From the NCBI GenBank assembly GCA_036172245.1, contig JAYWIR010000072.1:248001-312000 (forward strand): a stretch of DNA of 64,000 nucleotides, in the 5' to 3' direction. Within the stretch, counting starts at the first letter, position 1; each line of letters opens with the position of its first letter. Below are positions 1 to 24,031 of the stretch, one piece after another. The notes beneath the pieces are model-generated. The model had not been told where the DNA came from and made no database searches. It saw nothing but the letters and a program-made list of their open reading frames with translations. Source of the stretch: Raillietiella orientalis (Eukaryota). A program made the translations under genes and the position numbers.

Positions 1-1914
1 GCCGCGCAGCCCGTTAACATTCCAACTGGCCGCGCGGATCCGACGCCGACAGGCGAGTCCAGGTGTTATTCCTGGGAACCTGGCGGTGGAGCTCCCTCCA
101 CCTTTTGGGGCGGGTCGCTGGACGGGGTTGGCGACTTGCCCACCAACTCCCCATCCTTCTTTCGTGCCGACGTCTCCGGCTGCCCGTGCGAAGGGGGTGT
201 TGTTCGTACCTGTTGGCCCACATCCATTGGTGCGGGTGGTTCAGGTTCGGCGGTTTCAGAGGGCATTGCTGACCCCTGGTTACCCTTTTCCGTTGGAGTC
301 GCCTCCTCGTCGGCTTCCGCACGTGGGTGATGCCCGACTTGGGCTCCCACGCTGCCATCCACTGGTTCCTCCACCATTGGATCCCCCTCGCGCGGAGGCG
401 CAATGCACCTTCGGGGTTTCTGGGATTTTCGCCCCGCTTTCGTTGGTGGTGCTTCCGCAGAGGAAGATGCACTTCCGGCCTCCCGGTCCGACTCACCTGC
501 GTGGGCCACTTTAGCCGCTGCCGGTCTACGCAACCCCTTTCGCGAAGGGTTCTCGCGTTCGGCAAGCGTTGCCGCAAGCTCCTCGGCGGCCTTCTCGAAG
601 GCTGCGTCCTTGGTTTCGGCGATTTTGTCGTCCGGCTGACCCTCTTCGCAAACGGGGGGTGGGTTTTCGCGCGCATTCGTCGCGGCGGGAAAATCGATCG
701 AAGCCGTATCGCCTCCGGTGGTGTCGGCGGGAACGTCAATGCGCTCCAGCGTAACCGTGCATTCTCGGAGAGTTTTTACGCGCGACACGGATTGAGCTTT
801 TGTTCCGGCCGCCGCCTTCTCTCCTTCCTTCGGGACATGCTTGTCCTTTTTTTCTTTTTTGGCTTTGACTAGCTGCAAGCCCTGTTCACCCTCTGCGGTT
901 TCGGGAAGATTTTTCTCCGATGCTGCGCTTGGAGCTTGGGTTATTGGCAGCTTTTCTCGGCCAGTTTCACGGTTTTCTAATTTTTCTTTCCCCGCGCGTT
1001 TCGCTTGCGCCTTTTTGGCGGCCGAGGAAATTGGGGTGGGGCGTTTAAGGCACACGCGACGGACGTGTCCCTTCTCCCCGCACAAGTAGCATACGATGTT
1101 CGGGCACCTCTGACGGATGTGTCCGACCGCATCGCAGTAGCGGCAATACCGTGGCTTGCCAGCATACCAGAGGTCTACTGGTTCTCCCGCGACCTCAAGT
1201 TTGTGGGGTAGCTTCGCTTCGTTTTTTGGGGTTACGCGTGCCGCAGCGAGGCCCCCGAAGTGGCGTCCGTAGCCCTCGAAGATTGTGGGCTTCGGCCACA
1301 GCGCGTGTACGTCCCCGTACTTACTTAATTCTGCTTTTACGGCAGTGCGCGTCATGCGCTTGGATATTCCTGTCAAGTGGACCACTACCGAGTGGTCCAC
1401 TGACACCGGGAACATCTTACGGCCGTCCATGATCAGCGGGGTATTTATAAAGCGATCGGCTAAGCTGATGCTCTTGCACACCAGCTCAACCCGCTGCGCC
1501 CCGCTGAGCACGCACAGACCGTCCAGATCTTCCTCACGGACATTAGCATTTTGTAGCGCTCTGCTGAAAGAGCGCGCGGTGTTTCCTTCAAACAAAGGGC
1601 CTACCTTGTATACAAGCGATGGCTTGTATTCAGAGGCCCGATAGGCGGCTTCCTCGGCCATGGCCTCCGCACTGGGGGCGGCGACCATTTCACTCCAAGT
1701 CTTCGCCGGCTGCGAAGACGTTCCAGGGACTATTGACCCCATAGATGTAGGTCCTGTGGTAGGACTTGCCTCCCCCACAACCACATCCCTCGCGGTGTCC
1801 TCTGGCACAGCTGCCATCGGACACCGACGACCCACACTTAACACCTGATTACACTAAAAAAAACTCCGGTTGCTTCCCAGACAGGCGCAGGCGGCGCGAC
1901 CAAAAAACACGTCC
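1..1914 (-). mobile_element. Non-LTR retrotransposon family A, 5' part (5' terminus, ORF1, start of ORF2); continues beyond the window edge
   Basis: 5' motif GGACGTGTTTT at 1914-1904 (minus), intact ORF1, then the ORF2 frame TPGLACRRRIRAASWNVNG running off the window start. Confidence 0.9.
66..1817 (-). CDS. LINE ORF1 (gag-like nucleic-acid chaperone), intact, ~583 aa
   Basis: Open frame from ATG (MAAVPED). Two knuckles, CRYCDAVGHIRQRC and CYLCGEKGHVRRVC, follow an RRM-like segment; low-complexity K/E/P tail; directly upstream of an APE N-terminus. Confidence 0.9.
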   Translation of the reverse strand: MAAVPEDTARDVVVGEASPTTGPTSMGSIVPGTSSQPAKTWSEMVAAPSAEAMAEEAAYRASEYKPSLVYKVGPLFEGNTARSFSRALQNANVREEDLDGLCVLSGAQRVELVCKSISLADRFINTPLIMDGRKMFPVSVDHSVVVHLTGISKRMTRTAVKAELSKYGDVHALWPKPTIFEGYGRHFGGLAAARVTPKNEAKLPHKLEVAGEPVDLWYAGKPRYCRYCDAVGHIRQRCPNIVCYLCGEKGHVRRVCLKRPTPISSAAKKAQAKRAGKEKLENRETGREKLPITQAPSAASEKNLPETAEGEQGLQLVKAKKEKKDKHVPKEGEKAAAGTKAQSVSRVKTLRECTVTLERIDVPADTTGGDTASIDFPAATNARENPPPVCEEGQPDDKIAETKDAAFEKAAEELAATLAERENPSRKGLRRPAAAKVAHAGESDREAGSASSSAEAPPTKAGRKSQKPRRCIAPPREGDPMVEEPVDGSVGAQVGHHPRAEADEEATPTEKGNQGSAMPSETAEPEPPAPMDVGQQVRTTPPSHGQPETSARKKDGELVGKSPTPSSDPPQKVEGAPPPGSQE

Positions 1915-4909
1915 ACCCACACCGGCTTTCGGCGAAGGGCTGAGGAACGACCGGGCATACCACCACGCCCGTCTTTACTCTAGGACTCCCGACGTTCGAC
2001 GCCTGGCGGAGTATAAAGCTGGGGCTGAGCGACAGACCTGGCAATCCGGGTCGCCCAGCTTGCTGGACGCTCAAGGCCAAGAATGCTCAGCTCCGGCGAG
2101 AATAAACCGCATCCTGCGGGACTATTACTCCTGCTTGTACGCGCGTAGAACAACAGAGAACGCCGTGGCGCAGCGCCTGCTGCCCCAAGGCGCCCCCCCG
2201 CTGCAGGAGGAGCAGGCACATGAACTCGCGGAGCCTTTCTCGATGGCGGAGATCGTCTCCGCCATCCGAATGCTCCGAAAGAAAAAGAACCAAAGAAAGA
2301 CGGTCTGCCCGCGGAGTTCTACCAAGGCATCGTGGCGGAGCTGGCCCCTTGGCGCATCGGGTATGCATGCTGCTCCGAGAACAAGGGGACGTCCCCAAAT
2401 CGTTCCGGTCAGCGAGAGTACGTCTCCTACCGAAAGGAGGAGACAATCGCAACGTAGGCAGCTGCCGTCCCATCACAGTAGTGAATGCGGATGCGAAGTT
2501 GCTTGCCAAGCTTTGCGCTGAGCGACTGGGACGGGTGGCGGAATCCGTGGTCAGTCCGTAGCAGACATATGCTGTTCCCGGACGAAGCATGGAGGCCAAC
2601 CTGTTCCTCGCCAGTACATGGTGGCAGTTGCAACAAAGCGAAGACCAGAGAGGTCAAGAGCATCCTGGATTCTCCTCTGACCATGGAGGGGACGCCATTC
2701 ATGGAAGAGCCGCGCCCGGTGCCCTTGCGGTCGCAGTCGATCTGCGTAAAGCGTTCGATTGCGCCGACCAGGAACTGCTTCTGGGGCTCCTGGAACGCTT
2801 GAGATTCCCGGCCGTCTTCCGGGCTTACCTGCGCTCCTGCTGGCGCTTCGCTCTGATAAACATCTCTTTTAGCGGCCGGCACGTGTACGGCGTGCCGGTT
2901 CGGCGTGGCATAAGGCAGGGTGACAGTCTGAGCCCCATGCTCTTCAGCATCTACTTCGAGCTGGTGCTGAGGGCATACAGGGAGACTCTGGCAACCCTGC
3001 CAAGCTCGTGTCCCGGCACGCCTGGCGTGTAGGCCTACGCCGACGACCTTCTGCTCCTGCTCCCCGGGTCCACCCCGGCGTCGGCGCTCGAAGATTTCTT
3101 TGAGTTGCTGCGCCGCGGGACGGGCCTCGAGGTGAACAGAGAGAAAACTTCCATCGTTCCAACATCACCACAACTTTTCAACAGTACGGCGTGGGCCGGA
3201 TGGCCGGACTGGATCCGCTTGGGGATCCCCACGGGCAGGTGATTCAAGTACCTTGGCGCTCCGTTGAGGGACTTCTGCGTTGCAGAAGCCTGGTCCGACC
3301 GTCTCCAAAAGGTGGAGTTGGCGATCGGCCCGTTTCGGAACGGCAAGTTTTACTTGCAGGAGCATGCGGCGGTGTGGAACGCATTCGCGGCCCTCCTCCT
3401 CCGCCCCTTACTTTTTGTTTGTCCCGCCCCTCTGACCATACAGGGACGGACCAAAGCCCTCTTGAGGACTGCCCTTTGGGGCACAGCGGGGTCGCGATTC
3501 CGATTGAAAGACTTTTGCGCTCCACGCAAGGATGGTGGCTTGGGCCTCCTTACGTTGGAGCGCATCCAACTTCAAACAACAATTCGAAAGTTAACCCTTG
3601 CGGCTAGCTTATGGATGACGCCATGGTGCCATCCTGCACGGCTCCTCGCCAGAAGAGTGACCGGCTGCGGAGGATTGTCCTCGATCCTCGTGGGCTACCA
3701 GCGCAGCCTCTCCAACTGTGGTTTCGATTTGCGCCAGATGGTCTCCCTGATGAGGGAGAATACCTGGATCTCCTGCATTCCCGCGAACTGCACTTCCTGG
3801 CTTCAGGAGTCAGCTTCCGCGTGGGCTAAGATCAACGGAACGAGCGAGGCGGAATACAACTGCCTACGACGAGGACCGTACGCTCGACAGCCGCTGCAGG
3901 ATTTTATCAACACGCCCCGGAAGTTTCTGTGGGCTTCTTTCAGCCCCCTTGCCCCCGTTCTGTCTTACCTGAAAAACAGTAGGAGCAGCAACGAGCTGGC
4001 ATCGTGGGAAGTGTCCTGCCTCATCCGAGGCAGGAAAAAACCTTTAAAGGCGTGGACGACTCAAGAGCTCACGGACGCTGCCACTCCGAGCGTCCAGCCT
4101 CACGGACTTGCGCGCTGGGGAGAGCTGCTCGCAATATCTCCGTAGGAGGTAAAGTGGCTTCCAGCGTGTTGGGATTGCGGCACACTTCCGTTGAAGTGGC
4201 AGAAGACGGCGTTGCTATTTCTGCACTCGGGACTGTTAAGCAGAGCACCCCTGTCTCACTGGACACTGGGGGATGTGGATGCCCGCTGTGTCGAGTGCGG
4301 AGAAAGAGAAACCTTCCCGCATCTCACCCTCGAGTGTGTCGCCCTGGATGGACTCTAAAGTCGAATCGCCCCAATCCTCCATCTTCCAGTAGGCGACCCT
4401 AAGGAAATTTACCGTCGCCTCTTTCTGCGTGACGGCCTGCGCCCCGCTGCGTCTCTAGCAGTCCTCTGCTGCGTGCGCGGCATTGTGCTAAGGTGGCACG
4501 CCAGAAGAAGAGGCCCAAGATGCAGGGACGCCATCCACTGGACGACGATCTCTTTAGAGAAGGCGACAAGGTGGCGTCTACCTTTCAGAGTTAAAACAGA
4601 ACTTGACTGCATCCTTAACAGGATGCGGAGGACCGACCCAGGCGCCCAGTGATCCCTTCCCTGCCCGCCCTCCTCCCCATACAACTGTTTCCCTCCCCGT
4701 TATCTCTCTTTTTGTTGGTTGTTGTTCTAGTTTTCCCTTCCCATGCGCCTCGGGAATGGACCTAACCGGTCTATGCACAGGTAAACTACACGTCGAGCAA
4801 GGTGGGAGAACCCAGTGTTTCCCCACATAAAACATCTTTCTAAAGACTTCATTATCTAATTTTTGTAAAAAATTAGAATAATAAATGCCCTGGCATATCC
4901 GGGTGGCAA
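1915..4909 (+). pseudogene. LINE family B, 3' part: linker + RT + C-terminal zinc finger + 3'UTR, disrupted
   Basis: RPITVVNADAKL, AVDLRKAFD, GIRQGDSLSP, AYADDL, FKYLG and CVEC...HLTLEC are spread over several frames, with stops near 2559, 3030, 3240 and 4143. Ends in the terminal hairpin at 4880-4909. Confidence 0.9.
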
Positions 4910-5975
4910 ACTTCGGCTGGGGCCGAACATTCCTGGCCCTTGTCGTCTATCAGGCATGCTGCTCCGGACTGCCAGACCTGACGCTCGGCCCTCTCCTTGT
5001 ACTCCGCGAGACGCTCGACATCCGCGCGTCTCGAAAACGTGCGGGCCTGAAGAAAGTCTCTACTGTTGGCCACGCCCTCTCCGAAACCGCGTGGAAGCCG
5101 GTGCAAGGGGAATTGGCAACAGAACTCGCGGACAGATCTTTTGAGATCGTCCCAGTCCGCAAGTTCTTGAATGGCAAAGCCTCGGAGGTATCCACGTAGA
5201 TGCTCCGCAGCCTCCGGTTGGCTAAGCCAATCCGCCTGCATCCTCCAGTTTTGCAACGGAGGCCCCCTGCCTGTCGGAAGGATCTGAAACTCCAAGCTGT
5301 GGTGGTCAGAATGCCTAGTCAACAATCTTCCTCTCCTACCCACACGCGAATGCAGGTTTTCATCGAGGAAAACGTGATCGAGCGATTTTTCTATTCCAGG
5401 TTTGCTGACCATCAAGTTGGCGGCGTGCACGGACGCGCACATCTCGATGGCAAGCGCGCGTTCCCTCGGGCGGCTCCAATCCTCGGAGAGCAGGCGGACG
5501 TTGAAGTCCCCATCGACGAGGTGCGCCACTTGGAAGCCGGAGTTGTTAAGCCAGGGGCTCTTAACCTCACCAAGGAAAGCTACTCTTTCTTCAAGGTAGC
5601 GAGAGCCACTCGGCGCGTAGACGTTCGTAACGACGAGATCGATGGACTCGGTCCACTTAATGACAAGCTGGCCTATCCGCCCGTCGTCATCAAAACGAAC
5701 AGTACGCTCCGCTTACGCTATTTTTCCTCTTACAAGGAACGCGACGACGCACGTGTGTGCGCCGCTGCACCGCCAATGTAGCGTTCCGCCTGCGCGCTCC
5801 TCGATTTTGGCTGCCTCCTCGTCGGAGATTACGTGAATCTCCTGCAGGAGCTCGAGTTCGAAGGGGCGCAGGGCGTTGGCTACTAATCGCCTCTTTTCGT
5901 CGTTCTGTAGTCCGTTCACGTTCCAACACGTTACGGACAGACGACCAGAAGACGCGATTCCTCGCTTTTCTGCTG
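4910..5975 (-). pseudogene. LINE family C ORF2 5' part (APE endonuclease + linker), cut at GQECSAPAEV
   Basis: CWNVNGLQ, LLQEIHV, GDFN, LDHVFLD and SDH motifs in ORFs 5713..5919 and 4873..5529. Confidence 0.88.
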
Positions 5976-7885
5976 GGAAGTTGGCGGCTTTTTGCTCGCT
6001 TTATCCAGCGAGCAGACGGCGAGCAGCACTACTGGCTGGAGGGGACGGTCACCACCGTCCTGCGTCGTGCTGCATGCATGTAATGCCTCCACGCCAGGCT
6101 TAACCCCGTCGGGTTTCGTGGAAACTTCGCGTTGCTTCGGGGCGAGCGTTGCCTGGCTGCATACTTTTCATCGGCGCGCACACGCTTTTGAACGAGTTGT
6201 CCTCGTCTCGGTGATCGGAACGGCATCCATTTCGGAGTACGACCGGCGCTTGTTCGATCGGGTTTCGGCCTTCCGCGAAGTAGAAACAGGTTCTACTGGA
6301 TTGACAGCTGTCCTGTTGTCGTTTTTCGTCACCAGAGCATCGCTTTTGGTGACGGCTGCTTTCCCGGCGCGCGCGTTTTCAACGTGCTCACGCGCAGTTG
6401 CACGAGGGACCTTTGCTGAAGTCTTCTTTACTTCATTACGGTTCCTCACTTCGCGTGGCGCCGTAAATAAAGATTGTGCTCCATTGCCATCTTTGAAGCC
6501 ATTCGCGTCTTTAGACGGGAGCACTTTCAATGACTGCGACACGCTCGTCATGGACGCTGTCTTCGAAAGGGCTATTAATCCCTTCGTTGGCATGGCATTC
6601 GCGTCAGTCGAGAGCTTTTTCTCCGACTGCGACGGCGTAAGATTTTTCTCCGCTTTCGCGGTGTTGGAACGCGACGCGGATTTTTTTTCGCCGACTTCCG
6701 AAGACGACACGGCACAACTCTTCTTACCCGATTTGGGCTTCTCAGCCACTGCACGAGGTGAAGGAAAGGATCTCACGGTACTGGAAGTGTCGTTACCGCC
6801 GTGGTTTATCGGCTTCCCGCCGGTTGCTCGAACTCCGAGAGAGCCGGGCGTGCTTGGGAAGGACAGCTAGTGCGCCTAGGGGGACTTACCATTGCCCGGA
6901 TTCCCCGCACCCTTTCTTTTGCGGCTCCCCTGTCGCGATAGGGGCGCGCAGGGCTTCGCGTGCGAGGTTTCCTGCTGCTTTCGGGCGACATTGCGCCTCG
7001 CGTCTTTACGGAATTTCTGCCGTGAGGTCTCCAGGTTTTTTGCGAATTTTTTCTATTCATCCGCGCTTTGTTTTTGAAGATGGAGCTATGCGGCTGCCTT
7101 TTTTCGCCAAAGATCCTCCAATTTTTCAATTGGTGCCCGGATAGTTTGCAATAACGGCATTTTCCAGAGGGGGATTTATATAAACAATGCCCTTCCTTCC
7201 CGCATTGCTCGCACGTTCTTACTTTGCCCACGAACCACAGGTGAACGACCGTGTCTTTCACCTGTAGTATAATGGGCAGCAGACGGCGTTCCGGCATTGT
7301 AAGCCGGACTCCAGCGACTCTGCTGTGTATGGACGAGAAGTCCTTGAGGCTGCTACGCACCCTCAACAGCGCATGGACCGTGGCGAATTTCGCTAACGCG
7401 TTCCGAATATCAATATCCGAGATTTCCGACCCGATGTCGAAAATCTCCGCCACAAATGAGTCGTCCATGGCGGCCGGGAAGACCTTCTGGGCATGGATCG
7501 AAAAAGGGGTGCGCAGCAAGCGTTGCACAAGTGCAGCCTCTTTGCAACGCACCTTGAAATAGCCCATATCCTTTACGGGCATAATGGGGAGGAGGTTTTC
7601 CTTTCGCACGCCAGCACGGGCCAGTTCATCGTTGGACTGATTCCCGTCGCGCGCAGAAAGAAAACCACTCACCTTATATCGGAGAGCAGGTCTAGAGCCT
7701 TGGGCTACGTATGCCTGCAAATCCGACTCGTCGAGTGGTTTCCCTTTGACGGCTGCTGTGGCAGCAACGTCAGCAAAACTCCTCTCCATTGGCGAGGAAC
7801 ACGAAGTGGAGGCGGCCGTAGCTTCCGCGATTGCATATCCGGATGCTGTTCCTCCAACTTCAGTAGCTTCGGGTTGGGTCGACAT
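5976..7885 (-). pseudogene. LINE family C ORF1, frameshifted
   Basis: ORFs 6806..7909 and 6168..6776. CEQCGKEGH and CRYCKLSGH knuckles; ALRYKVSG motif related to the other ORF1s; 5' motif GGACGTGGTTTT at 7957. Confidence 0.85.
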
Positions 7886-7957
7886 CTTCGTCAAAATGTA
7901 CGACGCCAAGATAAAGCGGATGAAAGCACGGAGACGAGAGCGAAGAAAACCACGTCC

Positions 7958-8432
7958 GCACTCGATTGAAATCTCCGGCTATCAGGTGAGCCTTTCGCAC
8001 GTTAGTATCCGCCAGCCAGTCGCGCTTCAGGGTTTCCAGCAGCCCGGTGCGGCTGCTGTCTCCCTGTTTTCCGTTGGGTGCGTACACATTCGTGACGATC
8101 AGTTCGATGGAGTCGGACCAGCTGAGAATCAGCTGACCGACCCGAACGTCGTCAGCGAAGCGCACGCCCTTCACGGCAGCGTCGGTGGCTGGCTTCAAGA
8201 AGAACGCGACCCCGCAGGTGTTGCGGGCGCCGCATCGCCAATACAGTCGACCCCCCGCGATCGTCTCGATCTTCTGGACGTCTGCCGAGGTGATCACGTG
8301 GATCTCCTGCAGCAGGGCCAGGTCGAACTCACGCAGGGTGTCGGCCGTATCTCGCCTGTTACCGTCGTCGCGCAGCCGGTTTACGTTCCAACAGGCGGCG
8401 CGAATCCGATGGCGACTAGAGAGGCCAGGTGT
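7958..8432 (-). pseudogene. LINE family A APE N-terminal half, cut at AGDFN
   Basis: ORF 7860..8297 is nearly identical to the start of the intact ORF2 (IETIAGGRLYWRCG...HLIAGDFN). Confidence 0.9.
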
Positions 8433-10161
8433 TACTCCTGGAAAGATGGCGATGCGCCGTCCGCCACCTGTAGGGGCTGGACGAAAGATGGAGGAGGAGG
8501 GTAAGGCGCTGACTGCAACTGTTCCCCCCCTTCTATGGGTAACGGCGCCTCGAGCGGGTCATCCTCAGGTGGATTCGCGCCTACCTGTTATCCCTCCTCC
8601 ATGGGAGGTGCTGTTCAGGCTCGGCGACTGCAAGGAGGACTTCGTCCCCCTGCTCACCCTCCTCCATGGGGTGGCCGGCCCGACGGCTTCCGAGGGTGAG
8701 AGTTCCCCCTCCGGGATTCCCACGCTTCCGCTACCTTCCTGCTTCTCCTCCTCGCTGGTAGAGGGGAGGCGCCTCCTGGGTCTCTGGGAATTGCGTCCCG
8801 ACTTCCTGAAGGGTGCCTCCGAGGAGCAGGATGTACTTTCGGTTACCAGATCAAACTCACCTGTGGGGCCTTCTTCGCCGGAGCCGGCCTTCGCACGGCC
8901 TTGCGCGAGGGGTTCTCACTCTCGGCCAGCGTGGCCGCGATCTCTTCCGCCGCCTGCGCAAACGCAGTGTCTTCGGCTTCGACCGTTTGCTCCTGTTTGC
9001 ACAGAGGGTTCGCCGTCGCGAACCTCGGGCACGGCGGAGACGGCGAGGGGTGGTTCGTCGCCCCGGGTGGCAGTCTCGGGAACGGTTACGCGTTCCAGTG
9101 CCACCAAACATTCACGCAGAGTCTTGGTGCGCATCCCAGGTATTTTATTTTGCCGGCTGTCTTTTTTACCGCCTTCGCGGGTTCCGCAAGGGGCACCTTG
9201 TTTTCCTTTCTTGCCTTAACCAGCTGCCAGCCGTCCTGGACTCCCGCGTCTTGGGAAGGTTTTTCTTCCGACGCCTGTGTGGGAGGAACAAGGGCTTGCG
9301 GTTGCTGCCGGCCAGTATCGCTTTTTGGCCTTTCGACCAATTTTCCGCGTCTTACCTGCGCTTTCTTGGCGGCAAACGGCACCGGAGTGGAGAGTTTAGG
9401 GCACACGCGGCGTACGTTGGCCTTCTCCCCGCATTAGTGGCACACAATGTTCGGGCACCTCTTACGAAGGTGTCCTACTGCGTTGCAGTAGCCACAAAAG
9501 CGGGGTTGCCAAACTTACCAGAGTTCTACGACTTCGTCATTAACCTCTAGTTTGTGGGGAAGCCCACTATCCTTCTTAATTGTCACACGCGCGGCGGCCT
9601 GCCCTCCGAAAAGTCTATCGTAGTCATCAAAGATTGTGGCCTTTGGCCATAGCGCGTGTACTTCGCCGTATTTTTTCAGCTGATCACCAACCGCATACCG
9701 CGTGATGTGGCTGGTGATCCCAGTCAGATGGACCACTAGGGAGCGGTCTATCGTGACTGGCAGGATCTTGCGCATGTCCACGTTCAGCGGGGTAGTGATG
9801 AAGCTTTGCGCAAAGTTCATGTCCTTCCAGACAAGCTCGACGCGCTGACCCCCGCTGAGCACGGATAGACCGTCAATAGCCTTCTCTAATACGTTGGCGT
9901 TCTGCAGCGCCTTCAAAAAAGCGCGTGCAGTTCGCCCGTCAAAGAGATTGCCTACCTGGTACATTAAGCTGGGCTTGTACCGAGCTGTCCGGTAGGCTGC
10001 CATCTCGGCCATGGCTTGCGCGCTAGTCGCGGTCACTATGGCGCTCCAGCTCCTCGCCTTGGGCGACGAGAGGGATTCCGGGGCGTACGCCCCTTTTTCT
10101 GTAATCTGTGGGGGTAGGCAAGGCTTCCTACACCTACCTCCATCGTGATTTCTCCAGGCAT
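8432..10161 (-). pseudogene. LINE family A ORF1, disrupted
   Basis: ORFs 9515..10288, 9086..9406 and 8916..9134 align with ORF1 66-1817 (AAYR..YKPSL, HALWPK, LPHKLEV, KTLREC). 5' motif GGACGTGTTTT at 10256. Confidence 0.88.
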
Positions 10162-10256
10162 CGCTGATATCGGAAAACAAAGATGTTCCACACAAAAAAC
10201 TCCACAAAAAACCCGCTTCCTTTCGACTCACTCGGGAGCGACGGAAAAACACGTCC

Positions 10257-11746
10257 GCTCGCCACGGATTTAAGGAGGGGGCTCGCAACCATACGGCCTA
10301 TTTACAGGCCCGACGGTACGAGAGGACCTCCAATGTCCGTCGACTGACCGAATATCAAGCCGGGGCCGAGCGTCAAGCATGGAAATCAACCCAACAGCCA
10401 AAGAACCCATAAACAAAGAGCATCAGCCTGATTCCCTTACCATTGCCAAAATCCTCTTTCTTCATCCATGACATGGAACACGCTCTGGTGCGCTCCAGCC
10501 CGCATCCTCGCCAGCCGTGTATGCACGACGCAAGGACTCGCGACTTTCCTTCTGTGCCCCGGCAGGAAGGTCAGGAGATGCGGCCTCCTCCTTGGACGCA
10601 TCGAAGCCCTGGTGGAAGAAAACGGCTGGACGATATGCAGCCCCGCCAACTCCTCCGCTTGGCTAGAGGAATCCGTTGCGACGTGGGCCAACCTGAACAA
10701 CCCAGGAACCGAAAATTGGAAACGCCTGCGATTCGGCCCCAACGCCTGCTGCACCCTACGGAGCACTCTAGAGTGTCCCGCCAAGAGCACGTAGGCGGAG
10801 ATCACCCCTTTAGATTCGACGCTTTCTTCCTACGCAGGGCGCTAACCAGCGGCTGGACGCCAAAGTGACAAGTTTCCTGCCGAATCGCAGGAAAAGGAAA
10901 AAAGATGAGCGGTTGGACCATGGGAGAACTGGCAGACGCCACGACCCTTAGTGCCCCCCCGCGTGAATTTCTGAGATATGTTGAGCTGCTCGGCATCCCG
11001 AAGGATGACCTGAAGTGGCCTCCAGTTCTCATCGGATCCAGGCTTCTTCCTCTAAAGTGGCAAGAGACGGAGCTGCTACTGTTGCACTGGGGTCTACCCT
11101 GCAACGCGCGCCGCTTCCTCTGGACGCGGGGAAGTGTAAGGCCTGAGTGTGCCAGGTGCGGGGAGGGGAAGTCGCTCCTCTACCTTGTATTGTATTGTGA
11201 TGCCCTCCGACCCCTTTGGGAACGGTTCGGGACGGCCCTCGGTCTCACTACGGGCAGTTAACACAGAGACGTTTTCCGCCTCCTCTTCGTGCGGGACGCC
11301 CTGCAGCCAGCAGCAGCCCTCGCAGTCCTGTGCAGCGTTCAAGGCATCGTGGCGGCATGGAGCGATGCCAGCAGCGAAGATGTAGATTGGAACGAGAGGG
11401 AAGTCATCCAGCACGCAGTACGCTTTTTTCGGAGAGCTGCCCAATGGCCACATCTGGGAAGAATGTGGACAGACCTAGAGGGCTTCCTTCGACGGATGGG
11501 CCCTCTGCATAGCGTCCGGTGATCTCTTCCCTTCCCTGCAAATTTTTTTTTTTTTTTCTGTTTGTTTATGCCTTTGATTTTTCTTTTTGTTTTTTCCTTC
11601 ATCCCCTTTCGCTGTCGGGGAGTGCCACGTCGGGTTGCGTCCTGGTGTCTCGACAAGTGGCGTGTCTCAGGCCGCAGTGGAACCTCATACCACCGAAGGT
11701 AGAGAGTTTTTTTCAAATCAACGCTCCAAGCATACTCGGGTGACAA
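10257..11746 (+). pseudogene. LINE family A 3' part with the RT core deleted (linker fused to C-terminal domain) + 3'UTR
   Basis: GARNHTAYLQAR linker to ~10390, then WCAPARILAS...LPLKWQE...CARC...RRMGPLHS. The 3'UTR matches that of the element at 40476-40680. Confidence 0.88.
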
Positions 11747-12627
11747 CACCAAATCCCTGGGGCAGGCTGTGCACAGGAAACTCCTCGCAGAACTTGCGGA
11801 CCGAAACCATGAGGTCTTAGAATTAGAGATTCCGGAGGATGACGCCTCCCAGTACTTAGCGGAGATGTTCCGCCGCACCCGAGATGCGCGTCTTGTCCCC
11901 GAGGGACACGCGACTCCCTGGATGGTGGTCCTTTGTCGCGAGGCATAACCTCGAATATCAACCGGAAATGGTCCGATAGCGTCGACGGAAGTTTCCCTGG
12001 TCTGCCGACCCGTGGGCACAGGTTGGCGTCAAGCAAGACGTGGTCTACGCTTTGGACAATTTCCGGTAGGTCCCCCAACAAGTTGCGCGTGCGCATAGCA
12101 GTGCACAGCTCGTTGGCTGAGTCTTTTTGTCCGCAAGGCACACCTGAGAGCAGGCGGATGTTGAAATCCCCATCGATCAGATGCACTTTGCATACGTTTG
12201 TATCCGCCAGCCAGTCCCGCATCAGGGTTTCGAGGAACCGGAAACGTTCCCCGTACCCGCATCCTCAGCTCGAAGCGTAGACATTGGTCACTACATGGTC
12301 GATCGATTCGGATCACCTAAGGATGAGCTGGCCATCCCGACTGTCGTTGTCGAAGCGTACGTCCTTGACGAAGGCGGCAACTGCTGGCTTCATAAAAAAG
12401 GCGACGCCACAGGTGTTGCGAGCGCCGCATTGCAAAAACAGACGACCCTCTGCGATCCTTTCGATCTCCTGGGCTTTCTCCGCGGTGATCACGTGGATCT
12501 CCTGCAGGAGCGCCAGGTCGAATTCGCGCAGGGTGTCGGCCGAATCCCGCCTGTTGCCGTCGTCGCGCAGCCCGTTAACGTTCCAGCAAGCTACGCGGAT
12601 CCCACGGCGACAGGCGAGTCCAGATGT
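11747..12627 (-). pseudogene. LINE family A-like APE domain, cut at SLPQGFG
   Basis: CWNVNG, LLQEIHV, GDFN, VDHVLLD and SDH; ORF 11713..12222. Confidence 0.88.
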
Positions 12628-14306
12628 TAATCCTGGGAAAGTAACAATAGGGCTCCCGCCACCTATTGGGGCGGGACGCTAGGAGGAGGGGGTGCGTTGC
12701 GCACCGCTTATCCCTCCTTCATGGAGGCCGAGCCTTCTTCAGGGCCGTGCAGAGGAAGAAGGGTTTTACCCACCTGTACTTCCTCCTCCATGGGGGTCGC
12801 CAGCTGCACGGTGTCTGGGAATGAGAGATTCCCACCCTCGCGTCTCACGTTGCCGGCTTCCCCCTCGGTTGCCATTTCATCCTCCTCCTTCTTGATTTGT
12901 ACGGACCTCCTGGGATTCTAAGACTTGCGTCCCGTCATCTTTGGTGGCGCCTCCGTTGAGGACGCAGTTCCTGCATCCGGAGCATTCCTCGCGGCCGGTC
13001 TTGGTAAGCTCATCCGCGACTTCTTCTCACGGCCTTGCAGTTCTGCCTCGAGTTCTCCCACCGCCTGCTGGAAGGCGGCCTCGTCGATCGCGTTGAGCGC
13101 GGCGCCTGGTTCCCCATCTGTTTCTCCAGAGTGTTCGTCATCGACCGTCGCAGCTTCGGCGGACGAAAGGGGGGAATTGCTCGCCCGGTGGCGGCATCGA
13201 GTGCCCTTACACGCTCTAATGTTATTGAAGAGCGGAGTTTTTCGCGACACGGTTTTTTGCGCTGCGTTTTTGTTTTCCCCGCGCATCGTTTGGAACTCCC
13301 AGGCTTCCAACTGGGCTGTACCATCTGCCAGCCTTCGCCGTCGCCAGCGTCGTCGGGAGTGCTCTGAACCGACGTTTGCTGGGATGGCTTAGGGACTGGC
13401 ATCTGGCTCCTCACAGCCTGCTTCATGGTATTTGTCTCTCTCGACCGTTTCCCCTTTGCCTTTTTGGCAACTAAAGGGACCGGGATTTCTCTTTTTGGGC
13501 ACACCTTGCGGATGTAGCCCTTTTTTCCACATAAGTGGCATTGGATGTTATGGCACAGCTTTTTTAAGTGCCCTGTAGCATTGCAGTTGCTACAATACTG
13601 GGGCTTTCCCACGCACGTAGCATCGACTTTTTCTTCGCCGATATTTAGTTTGTGGGGAAACCCATTATTCTCCGGTATTGCGACGCAAGCAGCGGCCATT
13701 TCACTGAATAACCTTTCGTACGCTCCGACCACATTGGATTTGGCTTAATACGCGTGCACACTGCTGTGTTTTGACAACTTCTTATGAATGCTGGTTTTGT
13801 CCATTTGGAGTGATACGCCCGTGAGGTGGACCACGACGGACCGGTCCTCTGTCACAGGGAAGATCCTGCGGCGATTACCGTAATGGGGTTGTTTAGCAGG
13901 CGCTGTTCCAGACTTGCCTCTGTGCAAGTCAGCTCAAGTCGTGCCCCCCACTAAGGACGGAGAGGCCTTCGATGTCTTCCTCCCTCACGTTCAGTCTTTG
14001 CTACTCCATTTGAAATTAGCGTGCAATTTTCATGTCGAACACGCTGCCTACCTTGTGGTTCAGCGACGGTTTGTAGCCGCTGTCCTTGTAGGCAATCTGC
14101 TCCGCTATTGCAGCCGGGGATATTGCAGGAACGACGGCACTCCAACTCCTCGTCGCTGCCGAAGAGGGTCGCGAAGGGACGGTTTCCCCCGAATCCGATG
14201 GGGCAAGTGCCCCGGATTCCTTGTGGGCGGACACCCTCACTTTCATGCGTGGTGGCGAGGAAGTCACCTCTCCTCTCCTGATTTCCATCGCGGTGTCCTC
14301 AGGCAT
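12627..14306 (-). pseudogene. LINE family A-like ORF1, disrupted
   Basis: ORFs 14016..14306, 13010..13732 (CSNCNATGHLKKLC, CHLCGKKGY) and 12918..13310. Confidence 0.85.
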
Positions 14307-14364
14307 TTTTTTCGTGGGGCACCGGCGCTCCTACACCAGACAAAAGCACCGAAAACCTTCGCAC

Positions 14365-15015
14365 TAACTAGACCGCTGAGCAATGCCAAACCACCTCCGC
14401 TCTCTAGAAGGACACAGGTTTGAAGCGCAACTGTGCCCGGTGTGGAGAGCGGTAAGGCTTCTGCACCCTTTAGTTGACTGTGATGCCCTTCGGCCCCTGT
14501 GATGACGCTTCGGTTCCACCTTAGGAATCCTGGAAGGTAACTTTCCCAGAGACGTTTTTCGGCTTCTCATCGTGCGAGACGCCCTGCAGCCAGCCGTTGT
14601 AATGGCATTTCTGTGCTGCGTACCCGGCATTGTGGCAGCTTGTACTGCATTCGACGAAGCAGAGGATGTTAACGGAGAGAACGTCATGGAGTATTCTGCT
14701 CGCTTTCTGTGAATAGCATCCCGACGGCCCCAACTAAGAAATCTCTACCAAAACCTCGTCGGCATACTGCAAATAATGCAGCCTCCCCACAACGGAGGGT
14801 GATCTCTTCTTGACCCTCCAAATGACTAGTGTTTTTAATTTTTCTTTTTTCTTATTTATATTTTTTTCTGCAATGTCCATCCTTTGACGTGGAGTGTCAA
14901 GTCGGTATGTGCAACGTCCACGCGACAGCTTCTTAGATTTATTGGCCGCAGCGGGTCCTTCCACCGCAAATTCTGTAAGGTTTTTTAATAAACGTCTCTG
15001 TTTGACCGGGTAAAA
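14365..15015 (+). pseudogene. LINE ORF2 C-terminal zinc-finger fragment + 3'UTR
   Basis: CARCGE...HPLVDC and RDALQPA remnants; degenerate terminal motif AATAAAcgtctctgtttgaccgggtaaaaa at 14987-15015. Confidence 0.75.
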
Positions 15016-15980
15016 ACATCAAAGTGTACAGTGCGCACCGCATTTGCGACGTCTGGCTTCAGCAGAAAGACCACTCCTCGGGAATGGTCTCCACCGGAAC
15101 GCGAATGTAGCCTCACCCCTGTGAGCCTCTCGATTTCCTGTACGTTATCTCCCCTAAGAGGGTGAACCTCTTGGAGGAGAGCCAGACGGAAAGGTCGCAG
15201 GGTGTCGGCCACGATACGCCTTTTGCTTTCGATACGCAGCCCGTTGACATTCCAACAGGCTATACGCAGCTACCGGTAAGAAGCGTTTCCACGAATCATG
15301 CTAATGATGGTGGTGGCGATTGTGTTGCGGGCTCCTGTTCGGGAGTCGGCTGGTCGATGTCCACCTGCATAGTCGGTGTTTGCGCAACGACCTGAACGTC
15401 AGCATCCTGAATTAGGTCGAACGGAAGATCGGACCGGACGGTTTTTACGGAGGGATCACGCGGCCTCGCGGACATCGCCTCCTCGCTACCAGAGCGCGTT
15501 TCCTCCTCCTCAGCCTGCGGGGCAGCAACGCGCATAGGTTTGCGGGACTAACGGCCCGCCTTCCTCTTCGGGAGGGCGACGGTGGGAGCGTTTCCGGCTT
15601 TCGCCTCGGACTCGGAAGTTTCCGCTCCTTTGGCTTCCGCCGGACGTCTCACGGGCTTCTATACAGACTTAGGAAGCTGCATTAAAGTGGCCGCGAGTTC
15701 CTCCGCCGCCTGCTTAAAACCTCGTAGGAGCCTCTCGACCTCGTGCGCTTCCACAGTACAGACGTGTTTCTTAGTCTCACCGCGTCCGCGATTGAGCATC
15801 TTTGTGCGGTCGTGTTCGCACGTACTTGTGTGTTTCTGTTAAGTCGGCCAAGCAGTTTTGTGCTACATGGCCAATTCTCAGAATAGTGTTGTGGAGCAAG
15901 CCGATAAATCCACGTCCACTGGAATGGAAATGGCCGCATACTTCGTGACGGTTTCCTCGCTTTCGGTAAGGAGCTAAGCC
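15016..15980 (-). pseudogene. LINE 5' part: APE N-terminus and ORF1 C-terminal half, degraded
   Basis: CWNVNG and LRPFRLALLQEVH (ORF 14985..15212); AAEELAA motif and a degenerate knuckle upstream. Confidence 0.75.
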
Positions 15981-15983
15981 TCT

Positions 15984-16280
15984 GTGACCTCTCAAATATC
16001 AGGACCCTGCGATGCGGATTTGCAGTCCTGTGTGGTATCCAGCTACATGCCCGCGCTTCGTTATAAGGTCAGTGGGCCCCTTAACGAGGGTACCGGGCGT
16101 GAGCACAGCGATGAGTACGTCCAAATCGGCTTTCGAGAAGAGAAAATCCTTGCCATCATGCCTGCAGGCATCATGGAATACACGAAGATACGGTGCAAAA
16201 GCGCTACACTTGTGAAGTGCCTTCTTCGTTCTCGGTTCTCCATCGGTGGCAAGAAAGTCCTGCCTTCCGTGATGGACGTC
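15984..16280 (+). pseudogene. LINE family C ORF1 fragment
   Basis: PALRYKVSG...RCKSATLV...FSIGGKKVLPSVMD aligns with ORF1 at 6806..7909. Confidence 0.75.
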
Positions 16281-16289
16281 GCACGTACG

Positions 16290-19200
16290 TGCTTCGTCGC
16301 TTTCCTCGTACATTTCACCCGGTGAAGCCGAGGCGTTCGCTTTCCTCGTAAGGGGAACTTTGGCGGGAGCGGTGCCAGCGTTCGGTTAGACACGGAAGGC
16401 CGAGTGGGACAGCTTGTACTCAAGTGGTCACGTTCGCTACGAAAAGGTCGATCGAGTCGACCTTTTCGTAGCGAACGTGTGCGCGTCGAGCGCTGCTGGG
16501 CGATGAGCCCAAAGGATTGAGTTCTTCGGTAACGTTCGGAGCCACTGACTCACTCGTTGTCACTCTACTGTGTAGCATCTCATTGCGGGGGATTTTAACG
16601 TCCACCTGCTAAACAAGAACAGAGCGCACAAAAGGGAAAAGTTGCTAGTGGAAAAGATGTGCGCGTCCGTGTACGCGTGCAACTTGTTGGCTAACGACCC
16701 TGTAATGGCGGCATTGCCTTACCATGTATTCCTTGATGAATACTTGTTTTCTCGAGTGAATCAGGGAGGTTAAATGCCGTCCATGCTTTCAGACCACATC
16801 AGGTTTGAGATCGAGTTGCTCTTGCCCGTCAAGGGCCTCCAAACTGTGTTTGGAGGATGCCGGCATACTGGCTAAGTCACCCGGAGGTGGTAGCATCTTC
16901 GCCAGTACCTCCGCGGCTTTGCGATAAGTTAGCTATCGGATTGGGACAATCTGAAAAGATCGATCCGCGAGTTTTGCTGCCGGTTTGCATTGCAATAGCT
17001 TCAGCGCGGCTTCGGAGAGGGTGTAGCCAACCGCAGAGTCTTTCTGCAGGCCCGCTCCTTCTCCAGGCGCGCGGACGTTGGTCGATTATCCGAGTACAAG
17101 GCAAAGGCCGAGCGTCAGGTATGGCAGTCTGTAGCGACAGATCTGCTCGACGACCAGGACCGGTAATGCTCGGCTCGAACAGACATGCGACGGATAGTCA
17201 GGAGCTATTACTCTTTTCTGTATGCAGAGGCACCGACGGAACGCAGTCTCTTCGAGCTACTTCTGCCGATTGATGCAACTGTTGTAGACGAGGAGGAACG
17301 CGCGCGTCTTGATTAGCCCTTCACGGCAGAGTAAATTCCTAAGGCCATCTCATGGCTAAAGAGTCGAAAAGCGCCAGGCGAGGATGGATTCCCCGCGGAA
17401 TTCTTCCAGTGCTTTGCGGAGCTCATTCCTCTGATGCTCCAACTCTCGTCGCTAACGCGAGACGAGTCCGATGTCCCCGCCTCGTTTCACTCAGGGAAGG
17501 TGCGTCACCTGCCGAAAGGCAGACATTTTCGCTAACTGAACAATTGGCGTCCAATCACATTAGTGAATTCGGACGTCAAGTTGTTCTCGAAACTTTGGGT
17601 GGCGCGGATGGGTAGGATCGCGGAATCCTTGGTAAGTCCGGAGCAGACGTACGCTGTTCCTGGGCGGTCCATGGACGCGAATCTCTTGTTCATCCGCAAA
17701 TGGCTGCAATTGCAGCATCGTGTGGCGGTGGATCGTCGTGCGGAAGCGACGCCTTCGATCTCTCACCGACGGAGGCGCGGGACGCAAAGGGAGACACCGG
17801 GAGCCTTGGCGGTTGCAGTCGATCTGCACAAAGCTTTCGATTGCGTGAACCAAAAGCTTCTTCTTGAGCTTTTGGAACGTCTGGGTCTTCCGGCATCCTT
17901 GTTGGCGTACTTGCGCTCCTGCTGGCGCCACGCGATTACATCCATTGTTTTCAGTGGCTGTCGCGTGTACGGCGTGCCGGTACGACGAGGAATTAGGCAG
18001 GGTGACAGCTTAAGCCCGCTGCTCTTCAGCATCTATTTTGAATTGGTGCTGGAGGATTACAGGCTGACGCTAGCCAACCTGCCGAGCTCCTGTCCAGGTA
18101 CGCCCGCCGTGGCAGCCTATGCCGACGACCTGCTTCTCCTGTTGCCCATGTCCACCCGGACAGCGTCGCTTGAAGATTTCTTTGAGTTGATCCGTCGTGG
18201 TGCGGGCGTGAGCGTTAACAGGAGTAAGTGTATGGTTGTTCCGGTTGGTGCGACGTGGGAGGGGCAGTCCGACTGGATCGACCTGCAGATCCCCACGGGC
18301 AGGTACCTCAGGTACCTTGGCGTGCCGTTGGGCGACTTCTGCGTCTCAGAAGCGTGGTCGGACTGCCTTCGGAAGGCAGAGCGTGCACTTAGCCCGTTTT
18401 CAGGAGGCGAGTTCGTCTTGCCGGAACGGGCCTGCATCTGGAACACCTTCGTTGCCCCCCTCCTCCGCCCCCTGTTTTTTGTTTGTCCACCCCCCCAGGA
18501 AGTCAAAGTCTGGGCGCAGCGCCTCTTACGCAAAGCGTTGTGGGGCGCTGCAAGATCCCGTGTTAGACTTAAAGACTTGGTGGCGCCGCGTCAGGATGCA
18601 GGCTTGGGCATCCTCGACTTAAAAAGCATCGAACTGCAGGTGCAGTTTCGCATGCTGCGGCTCTGTGCCAAGCTGTGGTGTACGCCGTGGTGCTTACCCG
18701 CACGCCTTATACTGAGGCGCTGCACGGGAAGCGAGGGACTGCTTTCGTTGCTACCCCACTTTCGGCACACCAGAATAGGGTTTGGCTTCCCGCTGAGGCA
18801 GCTGTCCTCACTGCTGGAAGCCCACAGCTGGATCTCCTGCCGCCCCATGAACATTAATGCATGGCGGCAGGAATCTTTTTCATCGTGGGCAGCTTCCGAA
18901 GGAACGCGCCCGGAAGATCTTCGACGCCTGCGACTTCTCCTCAGTCATCAAATGGACGAAGTCATGCAGGACAAGAAGTTGTCGGATCGTCTGGCCGCCA
19001 CACCACTCGCCGTAGCGCTGTCTGCCCTCAGGGCAAGCAACGACGGTTGCCTACCGGCGGAATGGGAGTTCTCCTTCAAAATAGCGGGAGTCAGTAAGCT
19101 CCTCGGCAGCTGGACGACAAAGGAGCTGGTGCAAGCCGCCACACCTCGGAATCGGGCGAAGGGACTGCTTCGGTGGAGCGAACATTCAAGTGTGCCCCCC

Positions 19201-20054
19201 GGAGAGATAGTGGTTCCCCCCGTTTGTTTGGACAGCTCCGTGTTCCCCCTTAAGTGGAAACAAGATGTGCTCCTCTTTTTACATTGTGCATTTCACTGTA
19301 ATAGGCAGCGAAGCATCGTTTCCGGGGGAGCTGCTTTGCCAAACTGTTTAAGGTGCGGAGAGATCGAGTCTTTTTCGCACCTTTTGCTGGACTGCGGTGA
19401 CCTCCGGGAACTGTGGCGAAGGCTCACTTCGGCCATCATGCCACAAGGAGGCACTGCCATTGATGTGCTGCGGCGCTTCTTCAGCAGAAATGGACTTTCG
19501 GTTGGCGCGATTGTCGCAACCATGTGTTGCGTTCGCGCCATCGTGAAGGCCCGCTACGCCCTGGAGTTGTCATCGCAGCGAAGGGAGGCTCACCTGCTTG
19601 CAGCTCAATTCATGGAGAAGGCTTCAAGGTGGTCTCATCTTCGTGACAAGGTGAATGAGGACATCACCGGCATACATCGCCGGTTTACACACCTTTGAGA
19701 ACGGCGTAATCCGGTGACCCCTGCGACCTCTTGCCCACCCATACCCCGTCCCCGTTCGCTCGGTAAAATTTCCGGTGCCCATGCTTTTATCCCCGTGTCT
19801 TCCAGAGTGATCCCAAAGACCCTTATCCCGTCCTCCTTATTCATTGTTTTTATTTTATTTTGGTTTCTTTGTGTTTCCCGCCCCCCCACACCGTTCACAA
19901 AACTGTTACTCTGGCCTGCGTGCCAGCAATATTCTCTTCATTCTTGTTCAGTCGTCGGTTGGGAGTTTGGTTCCCAACTGGTTTATTTTGTATAATTGCT
20001 ATTTTTTTTGGTTATGTTATATGGAATAAACGCCCCGGCGTGACCGGGTGAGAA
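16290..20054 (+). mobile_element. LINE family C ORF2 + 3'UTR; APE and linker disrupted, RT to C-terminus open (17563-19698, 711 aa)
   Basis: AVDLHKAFD, GIRQGDSLSPLLF, AYADDL, YLGVPL and CLRCGE...HLLLDC are in one frame. GDFN and SDH remnants upstream carry stops. Terminal hairpin at 20025-20054. Confidence 0.92.
20025..20054 (+). terminator. LINE 3' terminal signal: AATAAA + GC hairpin + TGRSAA (representative copy)
   Basis: aataaacgccccggcgtgaccgggtgagaa. Homologues at 4880, 11716, 14987, 24002, 35836(-), 40476(-), 45570, 49613, 53408 and 61744(-). Confidence 0.75.
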
Positions 20055-22150: not shown

Positions 22151-24031
22151 GCGCACATTCCGCTCAAGTGCGCCGGTACGCAGGCGGTTTCAGCGTACGT
22201 GGACGATTGACTGCTGCTGCTTCCTATGTCCATCCCGTCATTTGAGGTCTAGGAGCTCCTCGATCTGCAAAGTCAAGGAACCGGGCTTAAGGTGAACAGG
22301 GCGAAGTCGTCTGTCATGCCACTCGGTGCGGCGTGGGCAGGGCAGCCGGACTGGGTTTGTTTGATGATCCACAAGGTACGGTACTCCAAGTACCTTGATT
22401 TACCTATGATGTATTATCTTCCTTCGGATGAGTGGTCCAGCTGCCTTGAGAAGGTAGAGACGGCAATCGGCCCGTTCCAAGGCCGCAGGTTTTTCCTGAC
22501 GGAATGGGACGCGGTGTGGAACACGTTCGCGAACCCCTTCTCCGTTCCCTACTTTTTGTTGGCCCTCCCATTGCAGAGACAATAAAGCAGGCGAAGGGCC
22601 AACTAAGGATTGCCCCGTGTGGTAGGGGAGAGCCCGAGTCCCGCTTGCGAACTTGAGCGCTCCGCGTGCGGATGGCTGTCTCGGTCACCTGACGCTGGAG
22701 AGCCTGCAGCTCCAGCTCCATTTACTTTTAGTCTCCCTAGTGGCAAAGTATTGGAGTAGTAGCTGATGCGATCCTGCACGTCTCCTCGTCAAACTCTAGG
22801 AGAGCAACGTGGGAGTCTCATCCTTCCTATCGCTCCGTTGTCGCCGCCAAGTCGGTCGCTGCGGTTTAAAGTTGCGTAGAGGGGCTGATCCGAAGAGGTT
22901 GAACGCGGAAAGGCTCTTCTGTTGCCCACTTAACGGAACTGGCTGGCTCCAGGAAACCGTTTCCACGTGGGCGAGGAGCAACGAGCGACTCGCCGAGCAA
23001 TATCGCACACAACTGTTTGCGCTCAACTACCACCTCACGGTGCGGGAGATCGTGGAGAACCCCCACAAACAAGCATATAAAAGAAAAACTCCCCTCGCTT
23101 CAATGCTGTTTTACCTCGTGGACCATCTGAACAGCAATACTGCGGCGACATGGGAAGTGGTTGCTTAAATCTCCGGTACAGAGAAAAAGATCGGGGAATG
23201 GAAAACTGGGATTCTTGGCGATACTGCAGTTCACATTATCAACCCTTTTGGACTTTTACGCTGTGGTGAGCTGCTAAAAGTTCCGCCGGAACAACTGAAG
23301 TGGCCCCGGATCTGATAAACACCTTCATCCTCTCCTTCAAATAGCAGGATTCGGCGCTACTGCTGCTGTTTTGGGGACTCCCCTGCAACCTCCGCCGACA
23401 CCATTGGACCTAGGGAGCAATATACCCTAATTGTGTAAGGTGTCAAGAACAACATTCCCCTCTCCACTTCCTTATGGATTGTAAGGCTCTTCGGACCCAT
23501 TCCAACCGCTTCGCCGCAGCAATCGAAATCCCCTGTGGCAACAGCAGAAACGCAATTAGATCCCTCTTTGTTTCCGACTTCGTTCGGCCCTCGTTCTCGT
23601 TAGCAGCCCTGTGCTGCATCCGCAGGATCGTCGCTCCTTGTAGCAAGGCAACGTTTGGACCACGCGATGAGGGTGCCGTCCAATGCGCAGTCGAATTTAT
23701 GAGGACAGCGACTGAATGCACCCATCAGGATTCATCCATCAAGGAACAGCTTGCCGGCATCCTAGAAAGGATGTAATGGCCCCACAGCAGACTGCGATCC
23801 CTTCCCGTGCCTTTTAGATCTTGTTATAATATATACAAATTCTTGATATTTGTTATATCTTTTTGTTTTCTCCCTGTTCCCTCTGCTGTCGTGGTGGACC
23901 ATACCCCGGACTGCGAACCTGTGACCCTGCAGATTTATTGTTGTTCATTAGTGCGTGGCTGGACCACCAGTTAAGCCACAAACTGTCGTTTACTTCGGAA
24001 AAATAAGCGCCCAGTCGCAACCGGGTGAGAA
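22151..24031 (+). pseudogene. LINE family D 3' part (RT from the YxDD region to the 3' end), degraded
   Basis: AYVDD, VNRAKSSV, KVETAIGPF and LHFLMDC; terminal motif at 24002-24031. Confidence 0.85.

Follow-up and report, generated by a model that had tools for sequence, protein, structure and literature searches.

A probable nest of mostly antisense L1-like LINE copies in the Raillietiella orientalis genome and a recurrent insertion site within their own ORF2

Introduction

A stretch of 64,000 nucleotides (nt) from Raillietiella orientalis (GenBank assembly GCA_036172245.1, contig JAYWIR010000072.1, positions 248,001 to 312,000; hereafter the window, at its full length of 64 kb) is filled by copies of one kind of long interspersed nuclear element (LINE), and its part 1-15757 probably forms the right side of a nest in which L1-like copies have inserted into one another. 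That the nested cluster is real, and that nesting explains it best, we hold on balance to be the case. The initial annotation of this DNA had already read its left part as one flank of a nest built by repeated, mostly antisense insertion of LINEs into LINEs; the addition made here is a recurrent insertion site within the second open reading frame (ORF2) of the element, which that reading had missed. Copies, junctions and partner halves were sought within the window, from its base 1 rightward. Copies were mapped by tblastn using the window's own ORF1 (595 amino acids (aa), 69-1853, minus strand) and ORF2 (1215 aa, 40684-44328, minus strand), and the borders of the pieces were then set by scans for terminus motifs together with a table of junctions.

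Results

Dissection of the left part relies on recognition of natural element ends. The 5′ terminus common to the copies is GCGGACGTGTTTT, with variants G(C)GGACGTG(T/G)TTTT, and a 5′ untranslated region (UTR) of ~75-100 nt separates it from the start codon of ORF1. The 3′ terminus, defined by aligning the stretches after the ORF2 stop of every copy having one, reads AATAAACGCCCCGG-(5-6 nt)-CCGGGTGAnAA without poly(A) in nine of nine distinct copies. It includes a short conserved hairpin motif of five pairs, whose structure is unproven given that compensatory changes are absent from the compared copies. Using these marks, eight pieces were delimited from the left edge onward. Seg1 (1-1916, minus strand) is a 5′ part with the intact ORF1 (69-1853) and aa 1-39 of ORF2, running off the left edge of the window, and its natural 5′ terminus GTGGACGTGTTTTT lies at 1903-1916. 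Seg2 (1917-4909, plus strand) extends from ORF2 aa ~306 to the end and through the 3′ UTR up to a natural 3′ terminus at 4899-4909. Seg3 (4910-7959, minus strand) is a 5′ part cut at ORF2 aa ~367, with ORF1 at 6809-7978 and a 5′ terminus at 7946-7959, while Seg4 (7960-10258, minus strand), likewise a 5′ part, breaks off within ORF2 at the GDFN motif (aa ~173) and has a broken ORF1 and a natural 5′ terminus at 10245-10258. Seg5 (10259-11746, plus strand) covers ORF2 from aa ~306 to the 3′ end, less an internal deletion from aa ~349 to ~863, and closes with a natural 3′ terminus at 11736-11746. Seg6 (11747-14400, minus strand) is a 5′ part cut at aa ~312 and ending in ...GGATTTGGTG; Seg7 (14401-15016, plus strand) runs from ORF2 aa ~1082 to a natural 3′ terminus (15006-15016); and Seg8 (15017-15757, minus strand) spans ORF1 aa ~405 to ORF2 aa ~110, both its ends being cut.

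The resulting order, 5′(-), 3′(+), 5′(-), 5′(-), 3′(+), 5′(-), 3′(+), 5′(-), came out the same from tblastn and from termini and coincides with the one proposed initially. At each of the seven junctions between Seg1 and Seg8 the conserved natural terminus of the left piece stands against the cut ORF2 of the right piece, again as had been claimed, and throughout the window 14 junctions join a natural terminus to a cut LINE, which is the arrangement characterizing self-nested clusters. Some details of the initial description need amendment. The 5′ end called eroded near 14360 is indeed somewhat eroded, but it lies at 14387-14400 and departs from the 5′ consensus at only 2 of 14 positions; the last piece is of the 5′(-) type, but a natural 5′ terminus is lacking, and at 15757 it stops at a cut in ORF1 that meets the natural 5′ terminus of the next copy; and the extent of 1 to 16000 was too generous, since 15758-16000 belongs to that next element, Seg9, on the plus strand. 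A 5′-like motif at 15906-15919 was considered as the natural terminus of Seg8 and rejected as a chance match within the ORF1 of Seg9 on the other strand. The dominant antisense polarity noticed at the outset is borne out by the counts: 6/7 junctions among the eight pieces and 11/14 natural-terminus junctions of the window (one-sided binomial p 0.029) are antisense, where the count leaves out inverted-duplicate copies of two junctions and two ends of the copy W that adjoin non-LINE DNA.

Four of these junctions make use of one and the same site in ORF2, with antisense orientation in all four. The site is intact in copy R (40476-44450, minus strand), which carries the intact 1215-aa ORF2 and served as the reference; on the sense strand of the host it reads TGCCCCCCGGATTCGGCG^AGGG (43395-43412) and corresponds to codons L-P-P-G-F-G-E, aa 306-312. 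The putative nick point follows TTCGGCG, which takes in the G-F-G codons (aa 309-311) and one further base, and lies in the part of ORF2 that separates endonuclease from reverse transcriptase. At the 3′ junctions Seg5/Seg6 (11746/7) and R/S (40476/5) the host ends in ...TTYGGYG (TTCGGCG / TTTGGTG) at the same base: Seg6 is cut exactly at the nick and S (37972-40475, plus strand) at the same hot spot, aa ~312, and there both hosts adjoin natural 3′ termini, those of antisense Seg5 and of antisense R (40476-40486), respectively. At the 5′ junctions Seg1/Seg2 (1916/7) and Seg4/Seg5 (10258/9) the hosts Seg2 and Seg5 start 18 and 17 nt upstream of the nick point and are preceded by the natural 5′ termini of antisense Seg1 and Seg4. 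The offset of 17-18 nt between the two kinds of junctions has the polarity of a duplication and not of a deletion, which implies a putative target-site duplication (TSD) of 17-18 bp with a terminal ambiguity of ±1-2 nt; we infer that a genuine TSD underlies this offset and that the site preference is due to the endonuclease of the element. One more insertion, in the copy Seg12 of a distant family (24032), lies 13 nt downstream of the hot spot and is also antisense, so that site usage among the 14 natural-terminus junctions amounts to four exact, one 13 nt away and nine elsewhere. For an element of ~6 kb, the chance that two 3′ junctions share a base, that two 5′ junctions fall within 1 nt of each other and that the two pairs show the correct offset would together be well below one in a million, a rough estimate of our own reckoning and not a computed statistic.

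These features can be accommodated by target-primed reverse transcription (TPRT) in which the endonuclease would preferentially nick the sense strand of a copy already in place, chiefly at the position after TTCGGCG (G-F-G codons, ORF2 aa 309-311, and one base more). Nicking of that strand would force antisense placement of the new copy, so the site preference would account for part of the observed polarity, and second-strand cleavage 17-18 nt upstream would produce the TSD of 17-18 bp. Repeated strikes on the most recent copy would then give the alternating (-)/(+) order resembling a Russian doll, in which the natural terminus of each younger, inner copy meets the cut made in the older copy surrounding it. 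On this ground we tentatively propose, as a possibility to be taken seriously, a self-homing LINE: its endonuclease may recognise TTCGGCG^AGGG on the sense strand of its own ORF2, whereby copies would land backwards with a 17-18 bp duplication, disabling the host and building Russian-doll arrays that could form a gene-free, centromere-like safe harbour.

The divergence of the copies bears on whether the insertions were independent. They differ by 15-30% in DNA and the coding differences are mostly synonymous, with dN/dS (ratio of non-synonymous to synonymous substitution rates) of 0.20-0.45 in all 21 of 23 segment-versus-reference comparisons that gave a value, the remaining two being the reference against itself and a case of saturated dS. 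For S versus Seg6 dN/dS is 0.32 at dS of 0.77, meaning that these two were still under selection after parting and therefore were cut separately. Since a cut copy could not keep evolving under such selection, the copies diverged as active lineages before insertion; they are thus insertions that arose independently from distinct active lineages, rather than duplicates in decay. Distances to the reference separate even adjacent pieces: dN against R is 0.06 for Seg4 versus 0.21-0.25 for its neighbour Seg5 and ~0.13 for the S/Seg1 type versus 0.40-0.55 for Seg2. Judged by these values, neighbouring halves are evidently from different lineages.

The latter result argues against an alternative suggested by the order of the pieces itself. 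In mammalian L1 elements twin priming produces 5′ inversions, which place a (-) 5′ piece ahead of a (+) 3′ piece, and the same order is met here, so that every (-) 5′ piece with the (+) 3′ piece to its right might represent one element inverted on insertion. The topology matches, and for Seg1/Seg2 the breakpoints could be nearly contiguous if Seg1 ends like its 99.7% look-alike S (aa ~312 versus ~306). Nevertheless twin priming hardly enters into consideration: breakpoints are far apart and non-contiguous in Seg4/Seg5 (aa ~173 versus ~306) and Seg6/Seg7 (aa ~312 versus ~1082); paired pieces, Seg1/Seg2 included, belong to different lineages; the inner end is a full natural 5′ terminus in four of four terminus-bearing (-) pieces preceding a (+) piece; the outer breakpoint of S adjoins the natural 3′ terminus of R and not target DNA; and identical breakpoints are also seen where no partner stands in the twin-priming topology. 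The initial annotation had itself named adjacent halves of single elements with contiguous breakpoints as the outcome that would speak against a nest, and neither Seg4/Seg5 nor Seg6/Seg7 conforms to it, their lineages being different as well.

If the stack grew from inside, outer pieces should be the older ones, and coding damage does increase outward. Stops plus frame changes per aligned codons are 0/634, 6/876, 1/584 and 7/680 for Seg1-Seg4, 5/391, 15/844, 3/112 and 3/177 for Seg5-Seg8, and 13/1096, 16/664 and 10/528 for Seg9-Seg11, giving Spearman rho 0.90 (p 0.002) for Seg1-8 and 0.80 (p 0.003) for Seg1-11. This gradient fits a nest with younger inner layers, although the measure, which sums stops inside tblastn high-scoring segment pairs (HSPs) and frame changes between HSPs, is crude and to that extent takes weight from the argument.

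An independent view on a part of the stretch is provided by the run X1, the sole public run containing some of it: 13% of the sampled words were found, mostly 90-95% alike, so that X1 comes from a relative; its coverage bears on few junctions, and uncovered parts carry no meaning. One X1 contig (3755 nt) covers positions 7993 down to 4910, comprising 34 nt of the cut end of Seg4 and the whole of Seg3, thus bridging the Seg3/Seg4 junction, and then runs on into ORF2 sequence at the point where in the window the 3′ terminus of Seg2 interrupts Seg3. Past the cut of Seg3 this contig represents either the empty site or a paralogue without the interruption. Weak evidence comes from another, short contig, in which a Seg2-like host is met at the hot spot by a Seg4-like 5′ end, with 62 nt on the shorter side. 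The bridging contig is also relevant for the question of whether the alternating order is an assembly artefact, produced by a chimeric route of the assembler through collapsed repeats. In favour of this, the DNA is highly repetitive, an inverted repeat of 99.7% identity reaches the edge of the window, an inverted duplication of ~95% lies further inside, and the one public run that shares sampled words with the stretch (13%) is that of a relative. We consider such an artefact highly improbable nonetheless, because copies 15-30% apart in DNA are easily distinguished in assembly, the junctions fall exactly at natural termini, unlike assembler errors, and Seg3/Seg4 is bridged by a contig of the independent run X1.

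Several observations weigh against the nest and deserve to be considered together. No true partner half was found anywhere in the 64-kb window, and every 3′-deleted piece in it is of the "right-flank" type or the inverted duplicate of such a piece. The X1 contig may be a paralogue rather than an empty orthologous site. The insertion site is preferred and not exclusive, other cuts in ORF2 being located at aa ~72, 110, 173, 367, ~560, 583, 913 and 1082, and it is intact in five distinct copies (R, Seg3, Seg9, U and a copy at 25107-25271). Only two insertions, Seg9 and R, have both flanks visible, and they do not lie between matching halves. Seg9 (15758-20054, plus strand) possesses both natural termini, 5′ ACAGACGTGTTTCT at 15758 and 3′ at 20044-20054, and stands between unrelated flanks, the ORF1 cut of Seg8 versus the ORF2 cut of Seg10 (20055-22147, plus strand; a 3′ piece from ORF2 aa ~560-576 with the 3′ UTR cut short at 22147), with no TSD; R is flanked by S (aa ~312, dN 0.13 versus R) and by T, which is cut at aa ~913 and belongs to a different lineage (dN 0.54-0.59). 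Finally, an inverted duplication of ~17 kb and ~95% identity (22151-39313 versus 63624-50216) is arranged round an 11-kb centre (39313-50216), and window bases 1-352 recur in inverted orientation at 39306-39658 with 99.7% identity, both indicating that rearrangement other than insertion has also been active. An attempt to regard S-R-T-U-V-W (37972-53440) as a mirror copy of the left flank was rejected, as its pieces do not have the predicted breakpoints.

The main competitor of the nest feeds on the same facts. A one-sided build-up may be imagined in which TPRT started at nicks, 5′ ends were joined with large target deletions, and segmental duplication and deletion followed, so that many of the "missing halves" never existed or were lost and no mirror flank is present upstream. 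It would explain why the flanks of Seg9 and R are unrelated and without TSD, why no true partner half occurs within 64 kb, why the cut-to-cut junction Seg10/Seg11 (22147/8) coincides with the left edge of the ~95% inverted duplication, and why S is chimeric, joined at 39306-39313. Yet the 5′ junctions Seg1/Seg2 and Seg4/Seg5 lie 17-18 nt from the point of the 3′ junctions, as expected of a staggered cut without deletion, which requires that at least for these two events the other half of the host must have existed; and the irregular flanks of Seg9 and R may be attributed to breakpoints of the duplication. One-sided build-up is thus rather unlikely, while being the rival to be reckoned with. 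Repeated, mostly antisense insertion, as supposed initially, is supported by the junctions, the difference of lineages, the outward damage and the 17-18 nt offset, but does not extend to the flanks of Seg9 and R, which remain unmatched. Under the nest, the complementary halves would lie to the left of the window.

The element building the stack has features of an L1-like non-LTR (long terminal repeat) retrotransposon. The 595-aa ORF1 (69-1853, minus strand) contains two zf-CCHC knuckles (E 7e-5), an upstream ORF1 with nucleic-acid-binding (CCHC) stretches being typical of the L1-like type. The 1215-aa ORF2, intact in R (40684-44328, minus strand), has an N-terminal apurinic/apyrimidinic endonuclease (APE; Pfam Exo_endo_phos, E 3e-13, aa 32-237) followed by a reverse transcriptase (Pfam RVT_1, E 2e-22, aa 478-750) and a weakly zf-RVT-like C-terminus. 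In a sequence search of PDB, ORF2 matched human LINE-1 ORF2p with E 7e-50 versus 2e-15 to 1e-11 for R2-type proteins, a result which ranks similarity and is not a phylogeny. Taken together, the predicted domains assign the element to the L1-like (APE-type) non-LTR retrotransposons. Close relatives were not encountered: a protein database search with ORF2 gave 15 matches, the best with 30% identity over 42% of the query, none of the 15 being named as Zepp; a Protein Atlas search returned generic clusters of APE plus reverse transcriptase only; and scans of metagenome contigs yielded zero matches for the junction pattern of the hot spot and zero for the 3′-terminus motif. As to coding organization, no ATG occurs near the beginning of ORF2, whose frame differs from that of ORF1 and opens ~48 nt ahead of the ORF1 stop (1-117; 44210-44450). 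This overlap, along with the missing start codon, suggests that ORF2 may be expressed through frameshifting or coupled translation.

Neither a recognisable cellular gene nor an Rfam family or tandem repeat was found in the 64 kb of the window. G+C content of LINE stretches is 55-62%, and between them, at 26000-36000 and 52000-60000, there are low-GC blocks (36-46%), for which Rfam and tandem-repeat searches as well as Pfam searches on ORFs of at least 90 aa gave no matches; an inverted repeat is present inside these blocks (27083-28906 versus 32543-30343, 76-83% identity). Tandem 3′ pieces occur only further right, past the first 16 kb (Seg9-Seg11, T-U). Near 16320 Seg9 has lost the internal part between ORF1 aa ~177 and ORF2 aa ~91, but it still holds an open frame of 720 aa (17536-19695). 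Pieces of a distant L1-like family at 23980-25774, with a duplicate at 60001-61747, are 33-40% identical to R in the endonuclease region. Copy S is a chimera of a V-like part (96% identity to 50216-51767) and a Seg1-like part with the switch at 39306-39313, a structure that suggests recombination between copies or a recent segmental duplication. Two 5′-truncated copies, R (44330-44450) and U (45599-45744), start ~105-122 nt upstream of the ORF2 start, and this common start may reflect preferential truncation at that point or an internal start.

Discussion

Both recurrent target use and nesting have counterparts among known retroelements. Target-specific LINEs are exemplified by R1 and R2 in ribosomal DNA and by the Tx1 group of the L1 superfamily, which targets other repeats. 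Their insertions occupy the same nucleotide position in one orientation, as a sequence-selective endonuclease would produce, and the hot-spot junctions share this feature. In the element of the window, however, the site is preferred and not exclusive, and the target, unlike that of R1/R2 and Tx1, lies on the sense strand of its own ORF2, so that each such insertion disables a copy of the same family. In grass genomes, nested blocks of LTR retrotransposons contain younger elements inside older ones with age rising outward. The age order is the same in the cluster described here, which differs in being composed of non-LTR elements and in having a shared insertion point and an orientation rule.

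The nearest likeness is to Zepp and Zepp-like L1 elements of green algae, which undergo self-insertion and form nested gene-free clusters (PMC3446292, PMC8226300), thought to mark centromeres (PMC3446292, PMC8226300, PMC9940879). That Zepp elements make self-nested clusters, which the initial annotation treated as established, is therefore in print (PMC3446292, PMC8226300). Zepp (Chlorella vulgaris C-169 / Coccomyxa subellipsoidea) and ZeppL-1_cRei (Chlamydomonas) resemble the element of the window in being of L1 type and in self-nesting, and Zepp clusters are G+C-richer than their surroundings, as are the LINE stretches here (55-62% versus 36-46%). Two differences are apparent. Zepp and L1-1_CR are listed with (A)n 3′ ends (PMC3472496, Table 1), whereas the window element terminates with the hairpin motif and GAnAA, with no A run, in nine of nine distinct 3′ termini. 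Zepp arrays are described as tandem, mostly 5′-truncated 3′ ends (PMC8226300, citing Higashiyama 1997), while here 5′ parts account for five of the eight pieces, full-length 5′ termini are present on four of these, and the arrangement is mostly antisense. Given that Zepp has poly(A) and the element of the window does not, its membership in Zepp is not established, and the likeness consists in the nesting habit. The literature searched, which did not include the primary Zepp papers, makes no mention of a recurrent ORF2 target site or of an antisense rule, and we do not claim that these are unpublished.

In several green algae, LINE clusters nested in themselves have been proposed as the centromeric repeats, and the papers cited here leave unexplained how such elements find their own copies. 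Should the site preference fail genome-wide, the cluster of R. orientalis would be an ordinary, though unusually tidy, nested repeat cluster. If it holds true, a nick site in the element's own coding sequence combined with a fixed antisense outcome would offer a concrete mechanism of self-targeting and cluster growth, and the element would represent a LINE whose spread automatically inactivates its predecessors.

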